The position numbers were made by a program, and so were the translations under genes. A stretch of DNA of 61,628 nucleotides from an uncultured Eubacteriales bacterium (GTDB lineage: Bacteria; Bacillota_I; Bacilli_A; RFN20; CAG-288). Shown here one piece after another: positions 37,802-42,476 of this stretch (the stretch's first letter is position 1; every line of letters begins with the position of its first letter). The DNA lies in NCBI GenBank assembly GCA_900316035.1, contig ONBI01000003.1, positions 1 through 61,628 of the forward strand, written 5' to 3'. Below the pieces are notes generated by a model. The model had not been told where the DNA came from and did not search any database. It saw only the letters and a list, made by a program, of their open reading frames with translations.

Positions 37802-37830
37802 TTGACCTCTTAGAAGCATTTGACTAGAAT
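37802..37830 (+). promoter_or_regulatory. sigmaA promoter of peptidase operon 1
   Basis: TTGACC-N17-TAGAAT. Confidence 0.6.
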
Positions 37831-37859
37831 GTAATTAAGGACTAAAGGGGATTAATGCA

Positions 37860-38855
37860 ATGAATCTTAAAAAAATAAGTTTGCAATCTATCTCCCTCCT
37901 ACTGTTAGGCTTCGGTACCATTCCATCTACCAAGAAAACGTCTTCTTTTCCGTACGCTAGAAAACATCTTGAAAATATTCGACTTTCCACTAGTATCTGG
38001 AAGAACGCCACGATAGGTGAAACGACTGCCTTCACCTTCAATGGCAAATCCTATTCGTTAGCTTATGTTTCCGAAGACGATGCATACAAAGGCTATTTAA
38101 TATTAGATAGCGATAATACCCTCTGCACTTATTATGTCGGTGAAGCAAAACCGGATCTAGCCAGTTTAGCTTCTCTTTCTCCTATTTTCTCTTCCGATGA
38201 CATAGATACAACAGATAAAATCCTACATTCTACATCTACTGCTGATGAATTCCATGCGACTCCAACGCTGAACGAAGATCTTTACACTTCCCATTACGAT
38301 AGCTACAGCAGTTCTCAGTATTTAACTTCCTGCCCTTTCTACTATAACTATTCGTATGGACCTGTAAAAAACGGATGCGCACCAACCACTGGCGCCATGC
38401 TTATTTCCTTCTATGATCGATATTCTTCAATGACAAACTTAGTCAATGGTCTTCTTCCGTTAGAGCATAGTGATAATAAGGAAGCGGTTGATTCTCTTAT
38501 TATCGAAGTCGCTGATTATATGAAAACCGATACTACAAACGGAACCACACTTTCAAACGAGATGTCTGGATTAAATCAGTATTTCAGCGATGCTGGGTAT
38601 AGCAACTACCGAGCATATTATTTAGACACTTTTGCAAAATATGTGAGTTTTATAAACACCAAGAAGAGCCCATGCTTTCTTCGCGTGAAAACCGAGAACA
38701 ATGTCGGACACGCAGTCCTTGGTATCGGAGTCGCCAATCTTCGTTACTCTGGGAATTTTATGATTACCCATTACGATTGGAAGACATCTAATACGGGTGA
38801 TTATTATGTCAATGAGTCTAAATTTGTTGGCTTCATCTATATGGGGGAGAAATAA
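37860..38855 (+). CDS. Secreted papain-like (C39/C10-like) cysteine peptidase
   Basis: Signal-like N-terminus; NGCAPTTGAM (Cys), YMKT...GT, GHAVLGIG (His), HYDW (third residue plus Trp). Confidence 0.75.
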   Translation: MNLKKISLQSISLLLLGFGTIPSTKKTSSFPYARKHLENIRLSTSIWKNATIGETTAFTFNGKSYSLAYVSEDDAYKGYLILDSDNTLCTYYVGEAKPDLASLASLSPIFSSDDIDTTDKILHSTSTADEFHATPTLNEDLYTSHYDSYSSSQYLTSCPFYYNYSYGPVKNGCAPTTGAMLISFYDRYSSMTNLVNGLLPLEHSDNKEAVDSLIIEVADYMKTDTTNGTTLSNEMSGLNQYFSDAGYSNYRAYYLDTFAKYVSFINTKKSPCFLRVKTENNVGHAVLGIGVANLRYSGNFMITHYDWKTSNTGDYYVNESKFVGFIYMGEK

Positions 38856-38857
38856 TC

Positions 38858-39418
38858 ATGAAAACGAGAAATTTATCTGTTCTTGCTGTTCTCCCTGTCC
38901 TTCTTCTTGCTTCTTGTACCTCTTCTTCGCCGTTATCAGAGAATGACACCGCGGAAACGAAGCAGGCCTATGAAAATCTCGAGACGGACGATCTTTCCAA
39001 GGTGACCGTCACGGAATACCGCTATGAAGGAGATACCCTTTACTCCCGTTCCGTCATCTGGAACGGAGAGAAGAAGCTTCCTTCTCTCCTCCTTGCTTTG
39101 GCCAGGGAAGACAAGACCGGGAAAGAGAACTATGCCAATAGCGATGGGTTCTTCGACACGTCTCTTTATTATATGTCCTTCTATAAGACAGGCTCCGATA
39201 CGATCAAGGACTATCTCTATATCCAAAACTTCGCTTCGGACGAAGAGACAGCTGGATACTTTCTTCATTCCGCTTCCGGAAAAGCCGTCGATGCTGTCTC
39301 CTATATTTTCAAAGGACTTTCCGAAGACGCTTCCAAAGAAACCGCCTCGGTCCGAGAGGATGTAGTCGCGGAACTCGCTAATCAGGAGTTTTCTGTCCAT
39401 TCCGATCCAGTCTGCTGA
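38858..39418 (+). CDS. Lipoprotein of unknown function, coupled to the peptidase
   Basis: Lipobox LLASC; starts 2 nt after the peptidase stop. Confidence 0.8.
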   Translation: MKTRNLSVLAVLPVLLLASCTSSSPLSENDTAETKQAYENLETDDLSKVTVTEYRYEGDTLYSRSVIWNGEKKLPSLLLALAREDKTGKENYANSDGFFDTSLYYMSFYKTGSDTIKDYLYIQNFASDEETAGYFLHSASGKAVDAVSYIFKGLSEDASKETASVREDVVAELANQEFSVHSDPVC

Positions 39419-39558
39419 TCAAAAAGAAGTTCTTAAAGAAACGCAGAGAAGCCTCTTTAGGCCGATTCGTTCCGGGAGGTTTTTTCATATATTAAAAACC
39501 AATACGTTTTATATTTAAACGAACAGGTTGTTACTGTTTTATAGGAATTTATTGTACT

Positions 39559-39611
39559 AAAAAAGAGCTGCCGTATACCTAATCAAGGATTAGGAATAGA
39601 GGCAGCTCTTT
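39559..39611 (-). terminator. Terminator of the serpin operon
   Basis: AAAGAGCTGCC..CCTAATC/GATTAGG..GGCAGCTCTTT hairpin. Confidence 0.8.
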
Positions 39612-39625
39612 ATCGTTATTCTCCC

Positions 39626-40849
39626 TTACAGATTGACGACCGTCATCGCGAAGAGAGGAATATCGTAGTAAGAGAGGAAACAATAGAAGGGACGATCGAC
39701 GACGAACGAGATTTCCGGCATCTCAGCCGGAGCACTAGCTGTACCTGCACCAGACACGGTCAAAGAAGTACCTTCGATTCCTAAGGCGGAGAAAGTGAAA
39801 TCATTAGACTGTTTGCAGGCAAAAAGCTTTAACTGGGAAGCATTATCAACCAGTCCAGAATAGATTCCTACCGGACGGAACAAGTCTGCAAATTCAGAAG
39901 TATAATCAATCGTTTCTTTCAGGCTGAAATATGGGAAGAAGCCATCGATAACTCTTTCTTTCGTTCCGTTTTCACCTGCAAGATATGCTGAGGTAGCATC
40001 GACAGAAGAAAGAGAGACATTTTCGTTAGGAAGCACGAAGGTGAGATCCGTCCGATTGACCGAATAGCGGAAGGCACGATAATCCGTTCCTTCCCAATAG
40101 ACGCCTTCATGGTTGGCCGTATCTCCGTTCACATTCGAAGTGCTTCCTGATAGGTTATGGAAAGTCTTTTCACCGGTAACCGCATCTTCCCGGGATTCCT
40201 TGACACGAAGTGCAGAATAAGTAAGAACGCAGGGATCATCAAGCTCAAGATCCGGGACAGGAATCTTTTTACCCAATTTCGCCGTCAGGAAATCCTGTGC
40301 ATCCTTCACTCTGTTGGCATAACTGCTAGTGATGGTTGCAATGCCGTCATTTGCCAAGGTCTCACGGACTCCTGGAAGGTAGGAAAGGGTATTATTCGTT
40401 TGTGCAATCTGATGGAAAGTGAGGGAACGGAGAAGATCCTGGCGATGGACAGTTTCGGAATCATCATTCCAGTTGAACACCGAATTGAATGAAGAGAACT
40501 CCGCTAAACTGGAGATACCGAGTTTCGTCTTGACCGCATTTGCCGAACCAGAAACCAAACTCACGGCACTGTAGTTAAGCCCTAAAGTAAGAGGAGAAAT
40601 GATTGTGTTCTCACTAGTGGAGAGCTTCGACATCGAATAGTCGAAAGCACCGCCGACGAAGGTGGATTTGTTCGTCCCATTGAAAGCCACGGGTGTCTCC
40701 GACACCTTTTCCTTATACTGAATATCGGCAGGAGTGGTGTCAACTACGGAAGACGTATTGCCCGCAACAGAAGATGTGGTTGTTCCTCTGCAACCGGCAA
40801 GCAATAAGACGACGGTAAGTAAGAAGAATTTGTTTTTTCTATTCACCAT
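39626..40849 (-). CDS. Serpin-family lipoprotein
   Basis: Lipobox LLAGC and S/T linker; ENTIISPL (shutter-like), KTFH, TFVLP, FPYFSL, hinge GIEG...T, signature FVVDRPF..IPLF..V.N. Confidence 0.85.
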   Translation of the reverse strand: MVNRKNKFFLLTVVLLLAGCRGTTTSSVAGNTSSVVDTTPADIQYKEKVSETPVAFNGTNKSTFVGGAFDYSMSKLSTSENTIISPLTLGLNYSAVSLVSGSANAVKTKLGISSLAEFSSFNSVFNWNDDSETVHRQDLLRSLTFHQIAQTNNTLSYLPGVRETLANDGIATITSSYANRVKDAQDFLTAKLGKKIPVPDLELDDPCVLTYSALRVKESREDAVTGEKTFHNLSGSTSNVNGDTANHEGVYWEGTDYRAFRYSVNRTDLTFVLPNENVSLSSVDATSAYLAGENGTKERVIDGFFPYFSLKETIDYTSEFADLFRPVGIYSGLVDNASQLKLFACKQSNDFTFSALGIEGTSLTVSGAGTASAPAEMPEISFVVDRPFYCFLSYYDIPLFAMTVVNL

Positions 40850-40866
40850 ATCATGAATCCTCCTTA

Positions 40867-42246
40867 TTAAAGCTTAATGTAATTGCACTTAGTGCAACGT
40901 CCGTTTGAATCAAAAACATGTTCGTGATAACAGACAACACGTCCACACGTGCACAAAGAATAGTGACGTTTAGAACTGGCAAGACAATATTGAGATTCTG
41001 TATGCTCTTGATGAGTCAACGGACAACGGCAATAACAATGATAGTTATCACCTATAGTAAGATCACGACAGACATGGGAATCCAATTCACAACTACAAAC
41101 CGCATGTTTTGTGCCATTTGCATCTTTGACATAATAATTGTCCGAATGAGAGTGGGCAACATCACCACGAAGATCCATCGAATACCAGAAATGAAGATGA
41201 TTACGATATAATTTATCGATATTGGCATGGAGACTTGATTTATTGTTCTTCCAACCTAGATTACCATAGAGGATGTCATTTTCCTGATCATAATCGTAGA
41301 CGACAAAAAAGTGATCATCGTTTCCCACAACAACAGGTTCACCGTCTTTAACTTTTTCGACAATCTGCTTTCGGAATGCCGAAAAGCTTGATACTGTATT
41401 ACCTCTGTAAGAAAAACTAGGTGTCGAATCATAATAGCGTCCTTCACTTACATAGATGGGGTTATATACATGGGAGTATTGATCAACAGGAGACATGACC
41501 GCCTATTGAACATTTGGAACCGTTTCAAGATAATCCTTGATAAAGTCCCCATAATATTTAAAAGGAAAAGCACAACTTGTAGCCTTTCCTTTCACTAGAT
41601 ACCCTTTTTCAATGGCAAGAGAATAAAGGTGCCCAATAAAAGAGCCATTGTTCATCATCTTATCTAGGTAAATTGAAAAATTCTCTTCGGCCGTTTTGCT
41701 TGAGTCGGAAGGAACATTTACATAAATATCCTGAACGCAAGGACTTTGCTGGTATGTTGAATCATCCAGTGTTGTGTTATACACAGTCGCCTCGCATTGT
41801 TCAGAAATAAACGAGTCGTTTACAAGTGCGTCATAGTAACCGAGAATAGCAGTAAGAGCAACATAAGCACAATTGCCTACATTATTCGTCGGCATATTTT
41901 TCTGTAGATGAGAAAAATAGTTTTTTGCAAAAGCTTTATTAAAAGAAATGGAACGTGTATATTTAACTTCTAAATTGATAGGCAAAATGGAAGCCGCTGA
42001 GGAGTCAGTGTTTTTAACCTGATCTTCGTTATCCGAAGATTCGGTCTCATCAGATTCGCCATAGGCAAAGCTATGCTCTTCTGCCTCAGAACTGACATTC
42101 TCTCCAAAAGAACAGGATGCAGCTCCGACGGCTTTCTCATCATGAGAATTGAAAAAGCCTTCTAACGGAAAAGCAGAAGAAATAGCAAAAGAGGAGAGAA
42201 GCAAAAGCAAACAACTAGGAATAAACTTAGAACGTGTTTGATTCAT
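40867..42246 (-). pseudogene. Secreted cysteine peptidase interrupted by one in-frame TAG (ORFs 41503-42246 and 40867-41496)
   Basis: Junction reads CAA TAG GCG GTC ATG in one frame. The Cys motif GNCAYVAL..ILGYYD is in the 5' part; DHFFVVY and GNLGW are in the 3' part; Cys/His-rich tail. Confidence 0.75.
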
Positions 42247-42476
42247 AGCAACGTCCTCCTTTCATCTTGAATATAAATAGAAAAAGAGTCTGCTCAATGT
42301 AAAAGTTGAGAAAATGTAATTGTTTAATATATGTTAGCGCTTACTTGTATTCTTATATGAAAATTCCATTCAAATATTTTAAGACTATTTCAAGAAATCA
42401 ACGCTTACCACGAAACAAGTAATCGCACCATTCTTACTAGCAGGTAATATTTCTAATGCCTGTCAATAGAAAACCC

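Follow-up and report, generated by a model that had tools for sequence, protein, structure and literature searches.

We describe an island of two peptidase-lipoprotein gene pairs in a bacterial DNA stretch of 61,628 nucleotides (nt), called the window below, which is contig C40 of the metagenome-assembled genome G000. Two genes for secreted papain-like cysteine peptidases, here named pepA and pepB, lie on opposite strands, each closely followed by a lipoprotein gene: lipoA after pepA, and a serpin gene after pepB. We read the island as two cassettes, each made of a peptidase and a surface-anchored cognate inhibitor, with a serpin in one of the two inhibitor slots, and we give this reading about an even chance of being correct. 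It is favoured because of the folds and catalytic residues of the peptidases, the full-length serpin match, the tight gaps together with a promoter-like site before each unit and a terminator hairpin common to both, the conserved pairing, the recurrence of serpins in the slot, the fast divergence of the partners and the precedents in other bacteria. The data show what the genes are and how they are laid out, the insertion that carries them, the repeated occurrence of the pairing and the alleles of pepB; that the partner lipoproteins bind and inhibit the peptidases, and that the genes of each pair are co-transcribed, is what we infer from this evidence.

Two convergent peptidase-lipoprotein units

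An earlier note on this DNA, made from its letters alone, had proposed two convergent operons of a peptidase and a lipoprotein. The open reading frame (ORF) listing agrees, with unit A (pepA-lipoA) on the plus strand and unit B (pepB-serpin) on the minus strand (lengths in amino acids, aa):

37860..38855, plus strand: pepA, secreted pro-cysteine peptidase, 331 aa (ORF, AlphaFold2 model, homolog alignment)
38858..39418, plus strand: lipoA, lipoprotein, 186 aa (lipobox LLASC; gap of 2 nt to pepA)
39626..40849, minus strand: lipoprotein serpin, 407 aa (lipobox LAGC; family profile match to solved serpins)
40867-42246, minus strand: pepB, whole gene (ORF listing and ortholog comparison)
41506..42246, minus strand: N-terminal part of pepB, 247 aa (signal peptide, low-complexity linker, catalytic Cys region)
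41503..41505, minus strand: in-frame TAG in pepB, splitting the gene into ORFs of 247 and 209 aa
40867..41496, minus strand: C-terminal part of pepB, 209-aa ORF (catalytic His region, Cys/His-rich tail)

The spacing reported earlier was recovered in the sequence: 2 nt (38856-38857) lie between pepA and lipoA, and 17 nt separate the end of pepB from the serpin gene, whose start is preceded by AGGAGG. The lipoboxes bear out the assignment of both second genes as lipoproteins. In each unit the peptidase and lipoprotein genes apparently share one transcript, as judged from their arrangement.

The peptidases

The pepA product starts with an ordinary signal peptide, and its pro-region is N-terminal to a papain-like domain with Cys173 and His284; among the 25 sequences of the family His284 is invariant and Cys173 nearly invariant. 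An AlphaFold2 model built from 25 homologs (predicted local distance difference test, pLDDT, 86.8) was compared with solved structures using VIA-align. The best matches were the SpeB precursor 1pvj (Z 14.1) and the SpeB zymogen (Z 14.0), with 231-232 residues aligned, and prostaphopain B (Z 13.4, 236 residues aligned); the next-best match had a Z of 11.5. The top matches span model residues 20-331 and take in both the pro-region and the catalytic domain. With Foldseek the model was matched at an E-value of 1.6e-5. pepA therefore models as a papain-like zymogen of the SpeB/prostaphopain kind. In G016 a pepA homolog (L041:3422-4201) is without the catalytic Cys, and the lipoprotein gene downstream of it is kept.

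Both halves of pepB match the family model NF045837, which is labelled 'putative cysteine peptidase': the N-terminal part aligns with profile positions 28-103 and the C-terminal part with 144-232. An intact ortholog of 434 aa in G013 covers both halves: its residues 65-227 are 45% identical to the N-terminal part and its residues 240-430 are 46% identical to the C-terminal part. Ten family sequences share the invariant columns N106, G109, C111, H294 and G313 (G013 numbering). When the pepB and pepA families were compared with hhalign, the probability was 94.5% and the E-value 8.4e-8, the Cys and His regions being aligned with each other, and the pepB profile also gave a weak match to interpain A of family C10 at the His region (E 0.01). 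By these alignments pepB is a remote papain-like relative of pepA with conserved Cys and His. The fold check called for by the earlier note thus came out in favour of papain-like enzymes, directly through the pepA model and for pepB through its tie to pepA.

No named family's curated score was reached: pepA scored 14.7 bits against Pfam Peptidase_C39_2 (cut-off 24), and the halves of pepB scored 22.2 and 16.4 bits against NF045837 (cut-off 45). We consequently file both peptidases at clan level only; they are clan CA relatives of C10, C47 and C39, and not members of these families.

The earlier claim of two secreted Cys-His peptidases stands as regards folds and residues, but it had missed the TAG that interrupts pepB in this genome. 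Reading of TAG as a sense codon was ruled out: all three stop codons are in use in G000 and TAG ends 260 of its 1285 long ORFs, so that recoding of the pepB TAG is unlikely. We compared the site with contigs of other metagenome runs, which report the presence of an allele and not its frequency. Plus-strand position 41505 is G instead of A in contigs of X6, X7 and X11, from three studies, which gives a sense codon; contigs of X5 retain the stop, so that 3 of the 4 other runs compared have the sense codon. Since three other metagenomes carry it, the stop in pepB is a nonsense allele of recent origin at strain level, and in the species at large pepB is open.

The tail of pepB (window 40867-41150, minus strand; residues ~345-434 in G013) has a conserved Cys/His-rich pattern that is common to the G013 and G004 orthologs, with similar tails in G178 and G192. 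No family match was found for this tail, which from its residue pattern may be a zinc-binding module.

The serpin

Taken as a single sequence, the 407-aa product scored 22 bits against Pfam PF00079, below the 27-bit cut-off, and matched PDB entry 6ssv at 1.2e-6. A profile of this protein and 10 relatives matched 145 solved serpins, the best with an E-value of 4.7e-25 over profile positions 59-386, which upholds the serpin identity proposed earlier. On the strength of this profile the product of 39626-40849 is a genuine full-length serpin. The reactive-centre loop is present at roughly residues 357-381 and its length is about right. As aligned, the hinge reads G357-I-E-G-T-S-L-T364; of these residues, the family conserves G357, S362 and T364.

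The closest relative of the serpin, at 36-37% identity, is in G013, where it lies 18 nt after the intact pepB ortholog. A complex prediction for the catalytic part of this ortholog (residues 80-350) and its serpin (residues 22-393) gave a score of 0.00, to be compared with a mark of 0.32, and counts neither way.

The lipoprotein LipoA

Very few relatives of LipoA were recovered: a search of 5.8 billion proteins gave 4 and one of 1.84 billion representatives gave 4, with a further match, P0030, to a long repetitive protein. LipoA is presumed to be the partner of pepA and, from these searches, to be restricted to this lineage. Its AlphaFold2 model is of moderate confidence (pLDDT 69) and of mixed alpha/beta structure. 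No Foldseek match at an E-value of 0.001 or better was found. The best VIA-align matches were weak: 4r7r, a Clostridium lipoprotein of unknown function, at Z 7.0, a level commonly seen for models that have no true match, and YycH at Z 5.9. No staphostatin appeared among the Foldseek or VIA-align matches of this only moderately confident model. The ESM Atlas returned unnamed Bacillota clusters together with DUF4883 and DUF5301 at 0.92-0.93, which are leads only.

Recurrence of the pairing in related genomes

Loci with homologous peptidases were fetched from relatives, and adjacency was defined as a same-strand lipoprotein gene within 150 nt of the peptidase unit. An adjacent lipoprotein gene was present in 30 of 35 units (15 of 16 of pepA type, 15 of 19 of pepB type), to be compared with a background of 88 lipoproteins among 1497 ORFs in G000 (5.9%); the related genomes are not independent, so that a nominal binomial P overstates the pairing. 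The five units lacking such a gene are at L033, L047, L052 (where one lies 169 nt away), L058 and L060. Pairwise phmmer links join most of the pepA partners into a single family that evolves fast, and the pepB partners belong to several unrelated families. The slot may thus be occupied by a full-length serpin, by a short serpin-like protein or by one of several unrelated small lipoprotein families, which is what the earlier idea of exchangeable cassettes had anticipated. Homologs of pepA that are up to 57% identical to it have partner lipoproteins that are undetectable with LipoA. The partners hence diverge far faster than the peptidases, as expected of cognate inhibitors.

We then considered the 201 genomes of the order. 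Of these, 62 from 22 of the 51 genera have serpin-family matches, at 84 places in all, and 65 have a match to the pepB family. The survey of serpin neighbourhoods suggested in the earlier note gave a divided answer: a serpin abuts a pepB-family match in 9 of the 84 places, and the remaining places are weighed below. Other peptidase families beside serpins were checked in the fetched loci only. The linked serpins fall into two forms:

G000, G013, G178, G192: full-length lipoprotein serpin partners (G178 and G192 are from another family of the order, with gaps of 5-6 nt)
G023 (two loci), G008 (two loci), G187: short serpin-like lipoprotein partners of ~315 aa

In all of them the serpin and peptidase genes are on the same strand with gaps of 4-18 nt, and the adjacency extends over three serpin clades, two families and three genera. 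In a tree of 34 serpin sequences, obtained by a quick search and showing long branches, the linked serpins are in three supported clades and the linkage label needs at least 6 changes; 24 of 500 label shuffles need as few changes as observed.

The short serpin-like lipoproteins (~315-330 aa) form a well-supported clade that makes up 13 of the 34 rows of the tree (L029:5981-6934, L051:216-1169, L061:2594-3538, L073:1010-1954, L064-L071 and L091). They have the C-terminal loop region and are without ~80 residues of the N-terminal half; 5 are linked to pepB-type peptidases and 8 are not. One of them, scanned alone, gave no Pfam match.

Remnants of further cassettes were found in G000 itself. Contig C76 (L028:3966-5599) holds a 77-aa serpin C-terminal fragment, an 80-aa fragment of a pepB tail and a lipoprotein; C83 (L050:2489-4027) holds a pepB C-terminal fragment and a homologous lipoprotein; and C60 (L042:1077-1646) holds a LipoA paralog, 52% identical, with no adjoining peptidase. 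Partners outlive peptidases, in this window too. Such persistence fits an inhibitor that is useful against the enzymes of neighbours as well, and it equally fits a serpin with foreign targets.

Base composition

The peptidase genes had been described as AT-richer than their partners and the genome, and this proved correct. The GC contents of pepA and pepB are 39.4% and 38.3% (2.7th and 1.5th percentiles), as against 47.8% for lipoA and 46.5% for the serpin (70th and 53rd percentiles); percentiles refer to the 1285 G000 ORFs of 200 aa or more, whose mean is 46.1%. In other genomes the GC content at third codon positions (GC3) of the peptidase gene is below that of its partner in 18 of 20 pairs, with a mean difference of -0.069 (L017-L061). 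Peptidase genes are AT-richer than their own locus as well, across genomes of 30 to 52% GC.

Proposed mechanism

Under the cassette reading, each cassette would encode a Sec-exported papain-like (clan CA) cysteine peptidase of the SpeB/staphopain-like kind, in the case of pepA also with a pro-region, and a partner lipoprotein that would be tethered at the outer face of the cell membrane. The lipoprotein would bind and block the peptidase at the producer's own surface, so that surface proteins would be spared self-damage, or damage by the same peptidases coming from neighbours. In cassette B the serpin would serve as suicide substrate: once the peptidase had cut the exposed loop, the loop would insert into the central sheet and the peptidase would be caught on the serpin as an acyl (thioester) intermediate. 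Given the pepB nonsense allele present here, the serpin would be effectively an orphan inhibitor.

Several observations weigh against this. Binding and inhibition are themselves inferred. Inhibitory serpins usually have Thr or Ser in the hinge where Ile sits here, and Ala, Gly or Ser at the positions among which Thr and Leu sit. LipoA has no likeness to any known inhibitor in the sequence and model searches, and with an hhalign probability of 43% its homology to the other pepA partners is not demonstrable. GC3 is 0.32-0.39 in the peptidase genes of the window and 0.48-0.52 in the partner genes, a gap that may point to different histories of the two. In the strain studied here, moreover, pepB itself is interrupted. 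In the order, 75 of the 84 serpin places are not beside a pepB-family match, and many serpins of the genus adjoin instead a gene for a sigma factor of the extracytoplasmic function (ECF) type. Finally, at six loci that are syntenic with linked ones (two in G059, two in G058, one each in G051 and G049) the peptidase is gone and the short serpin-like gene is kept, so that the serpin is independent of an adjacent peptidase.

Alternative explanations

The alternative that survives best is that the serpin targets foreign proteases, for example serine proteases of the host or of other gut microbes, as has been reported for further bacterial serpins from gut and mouth, and that its adjacency to pepB is incidental or reflects shared regulation. 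The large share of serpin places lacking a pepB-family neighbour and the six loci just mentioned speak for it, and so do the intact state of the serpin while pepB has a stop, its genome-typical GC content, which pepB does not share, and published work, in its accessible parts, according to which miropin and the siropins act on foreign proteases. Against it stand the recurrence of the adjacency, at 4-18 nt and on the same strand, in three clades, two families and three genera, and the place of the serpin in exactly the slot that is held by other lipoproteins in 30 of 35 cassettes. We consider this explanation unlikely.

It may also be supposed that the cassettes are interbacterial weapons, in which the peptidase would hit the surfaces of competitors, the lipoprotein or serpin would confer immunity, and orphans would be kept as defence. 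G000 does carry several divergent cassettes in varied states of decay (C40, C44, C35, C83, C76 and C60), orphan partners persist, partners evolve fast, and the genes are AT-rich and on an island; moreover, the papain-like toxin/immunity pairs 9l5u and 8ssm are among the weaker fold matches of pepA (Foldseek E 2e-3 to 4e-3). Both peptidases nevertheless carry ordinary Sec signal peptides and lack a delivery domain, the structures that fit best, by 2-3 Z units, are those of general secreted proteases that have a pro-region (SpeB precursor and prostaphopain), and no target is known. We regard a role as weapons as unlikely too.

Least probable, and in our opinion very doubtful, is that the partner lipoproteins are maturation, folding or surface-retention factors of the peptidases, or their substrates: LipoA is unlike any known inhibitor, its weak fold neighbours are the Clostridium lipoprotein and YycH, and a lipoprotein foldase gene adjoins speB in Streptococcus pyogenes, but a serpin, from an overwhelmingly inhibitory family, occupies the same slot, a conserved role as foldase would not fit partners that are so divergent and so varied, and they persist in the absence of the peptidase.

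Comparison with known systems

The cassette reading has precedents. In the staphopain/staphostatin (scpAB, sspBC) and SpeB/Spi systems, a peptidase gene is followed by a small gene for a specific inhibitor with which it is co-transcribed, according to the accessible text of PMC3462683. The resemblance lies in a clan CA peptidase with a pro-region (as in the pepA model) and an inhibitor-slot gene directly after it; the difference is that those inhibitors are cytoplasmic whereas the partners found here are exported lipoproteins, one of them a serpin. The same portion of that source describes the Btp/Bti loci of Bacteroides, where paralogous SpeB-like peptidase genes are coupled in transcription to small inhibitor-like genes lying up- or downstream, some of the coupled products being predicted lipoproteins and one peptidase paralog lacking the catalytic Cys. 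Like our system, the Bacteroides C10 peptidases with Bfi/Bti concern gut commensals with several SpeB-like peptidases and closely placed partner genes, some of them for predicted lipoproteins. The Bti proteins are however staphostatin-like, with no serpin among them, and their hosts are diderm Bacteroidota, whereas ours are Bacilli.

In the KLIKK/potempin system of Tannerella forsythia, peptidases are linked to potempins, lipoprotein inhibitors whose role is to protect the outer membrane (PMC9890683, accessible portion). There too each secreted peptidase is genetically linked to a lipoprotein partner, an arrangement that here takes the form of same-strand adjacency at 2 and 17 nt. Potempins are beta-barrels of 98-132 residues encoded upstream of metallo- and serine peptidases, whereas the partners described here are mostly downstream, have 155-426 aa and are paired with cysteine peptidases.

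For the serpin, the nearest comparison is miropin, a surface serpin of T. forsythia whose covalent complexes with two cysteine proteases, Kgp and Tpr, are described in the available part of a preprint (bioRxiv 10.1101/2025.09.05.674453). It shares with our proposal a cell-surface bacterial serpin inhibiting cysteine proteases, published in its case; it differs in that its known targets come from another species and from the host, and the available part of the source holds no statement of a coupled own peptidase gene. Trapping of papain-like cysteine peptidases by serpins is documented in PMC8233489, whose reference list, within the accessible part, includes a title (Kantyka 2011) on staphopains inhibited by a human serpin. 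The trapping of papain-like enzymes by these cross-class eukaryotic serpins is the same as that proposed here, but they act in host-pathogen or intracellular pairs and not within one bacterium's operon.

The remark in the earlier note that no description of this architecture was known to its author thus needs qualification. The general form, a secreted peptidase with a linked lipoprotein inhibitor, is already known, and it is the serpin version that appears to be new: our literature search, outside of which most subscription journals lay, found no paper in which a bacterial serpin and a cysteine peptidase are encoded as a coupled pair. Prokaryotic serpins have been called extremely rare (PMC13692248, in its accessible part); with matches in 62 of the 201 genomes, serpins are far more frequent in this order than that would suggest. 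The accessible text of PMC8233489 holds conclusions on the role of prokaryotic serpins to be uncertain until these proteins are better understood. Their physiological targets are largely unknown, and the adjoining peptidase gene offers a concrete candidate target. If the cassette reading is true, the rule of a secreted bacterial peptidase with a linked inhibitor would extend to a cross-class serpin. The reading also suggests a function as peptidase inhibitors for many orphan lipoproteins in Bacilli of the gut.

A broader proposal and serpins beside sigma factor genes

As a broader proposal, which we hold to be less likely than not, the serpin fold may have been repeatedly recruited in this order of small-genome gut Bacilli to inhibit, as a cognate and lipid-anchored partner, the SpeB/staphopain-like peptidases made by the same cell, including a previously undescribed short form of ~315 aa; orphan serpins left after loss of the peptidase may provide immunity against the peptidases of neighbours; and in relatives where the serpin domain is joined to a transmembrane segment of anti-sigma-like kind, next to an ECF sigma factor, it may be a protease-triggered switch. 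If so, prokaryotic serpins would gain a defined endogenous target and a signalling role.

ECF-type sigma genes (Pfam Sigma70_r2/r4) adjoin a serpin at L025:6067-7934 (G010), L021, L023, L024, L082, L083, L018, L020 and L026. In six genomes the sigma-linked serpin has 450-550 aa, with an N-terminal cytoplasmic and transmembrane segment and no lipobox, and its score of 46.5 bits is above the serpin cut-off of Pfam. From its domain order such a membrane serpin looks like an anti-sigma factor with a serpin sensor, which could be switched by proteases.

The island and its surroundings

G000 is an assembly of 1.86 Mb, 75% complete and of 45% GC. Near-identical DNA, covering at least a partial stretch, was found in bovine and pig gut metagenomes in 20 of 24 listed runs (12 studies), of which 4 may be the source itself. 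The remaining features of the island and of its intergenic regions are as follows:

36482..42539, no strand assigned: insertion of ~6 kb between rplS and rpsP (comparison with relatives)
36803-37591, minus strand: tocopherol-cyclase-like ORF, 262 aa (Pfam Tocopherol_cycl)
37802..37830, plus strand: promoter-like site of pepA, TTGACC, 17 nt, TAGAAT (consensus scan, 10 of 12 matches)
39562..39611, no strand assigned: strong hairpin between the convergent units (folding energy compared with shuffles)
42270..42297, minus strand: promoter-like site of pepB (consensus scan, 9 of 12 matches)

The island comprises the tocopherol-cyclase-like gene and both cassettes. In G059, G013, G023 and G004 rplS is directly upstream of rpsP-KH-rimM with no insert, and in G008 the rplK-rpsP interval is too short to hold the island. 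Flanking repeats and signs of mobile elements were sought around it and nothing convincing was found. The promoter-like sites of both units are pattern matches only. The hairpin has a folding energy of -28.2 kcal/mol on the plus strand and -26.8 kcal/mol on the minus strand (z -6.9 and -6.3), none of 200 shuffles being as stable, and is followed by a U-run on the minus strand; it is likely a terminator common to both units.

A gene for a fused ATP-binding cassette (ABC) ATPase/permease of 903-945 aa adjoins many of the peptidase/lipoprotein or orphan short-serpin loci (L029, L030, L033, L046, L047, L051, L065, L066, L068 and L069), among which is the G000 paralog on C35. Within the island, the ORF at 36803-37591, whose Pfam match is to the C-terminal portion of Tocopherol_cycl (E 1.7e-7, 31.1 bits, cut-off 26.6), is odd company for peptidase cassettes.

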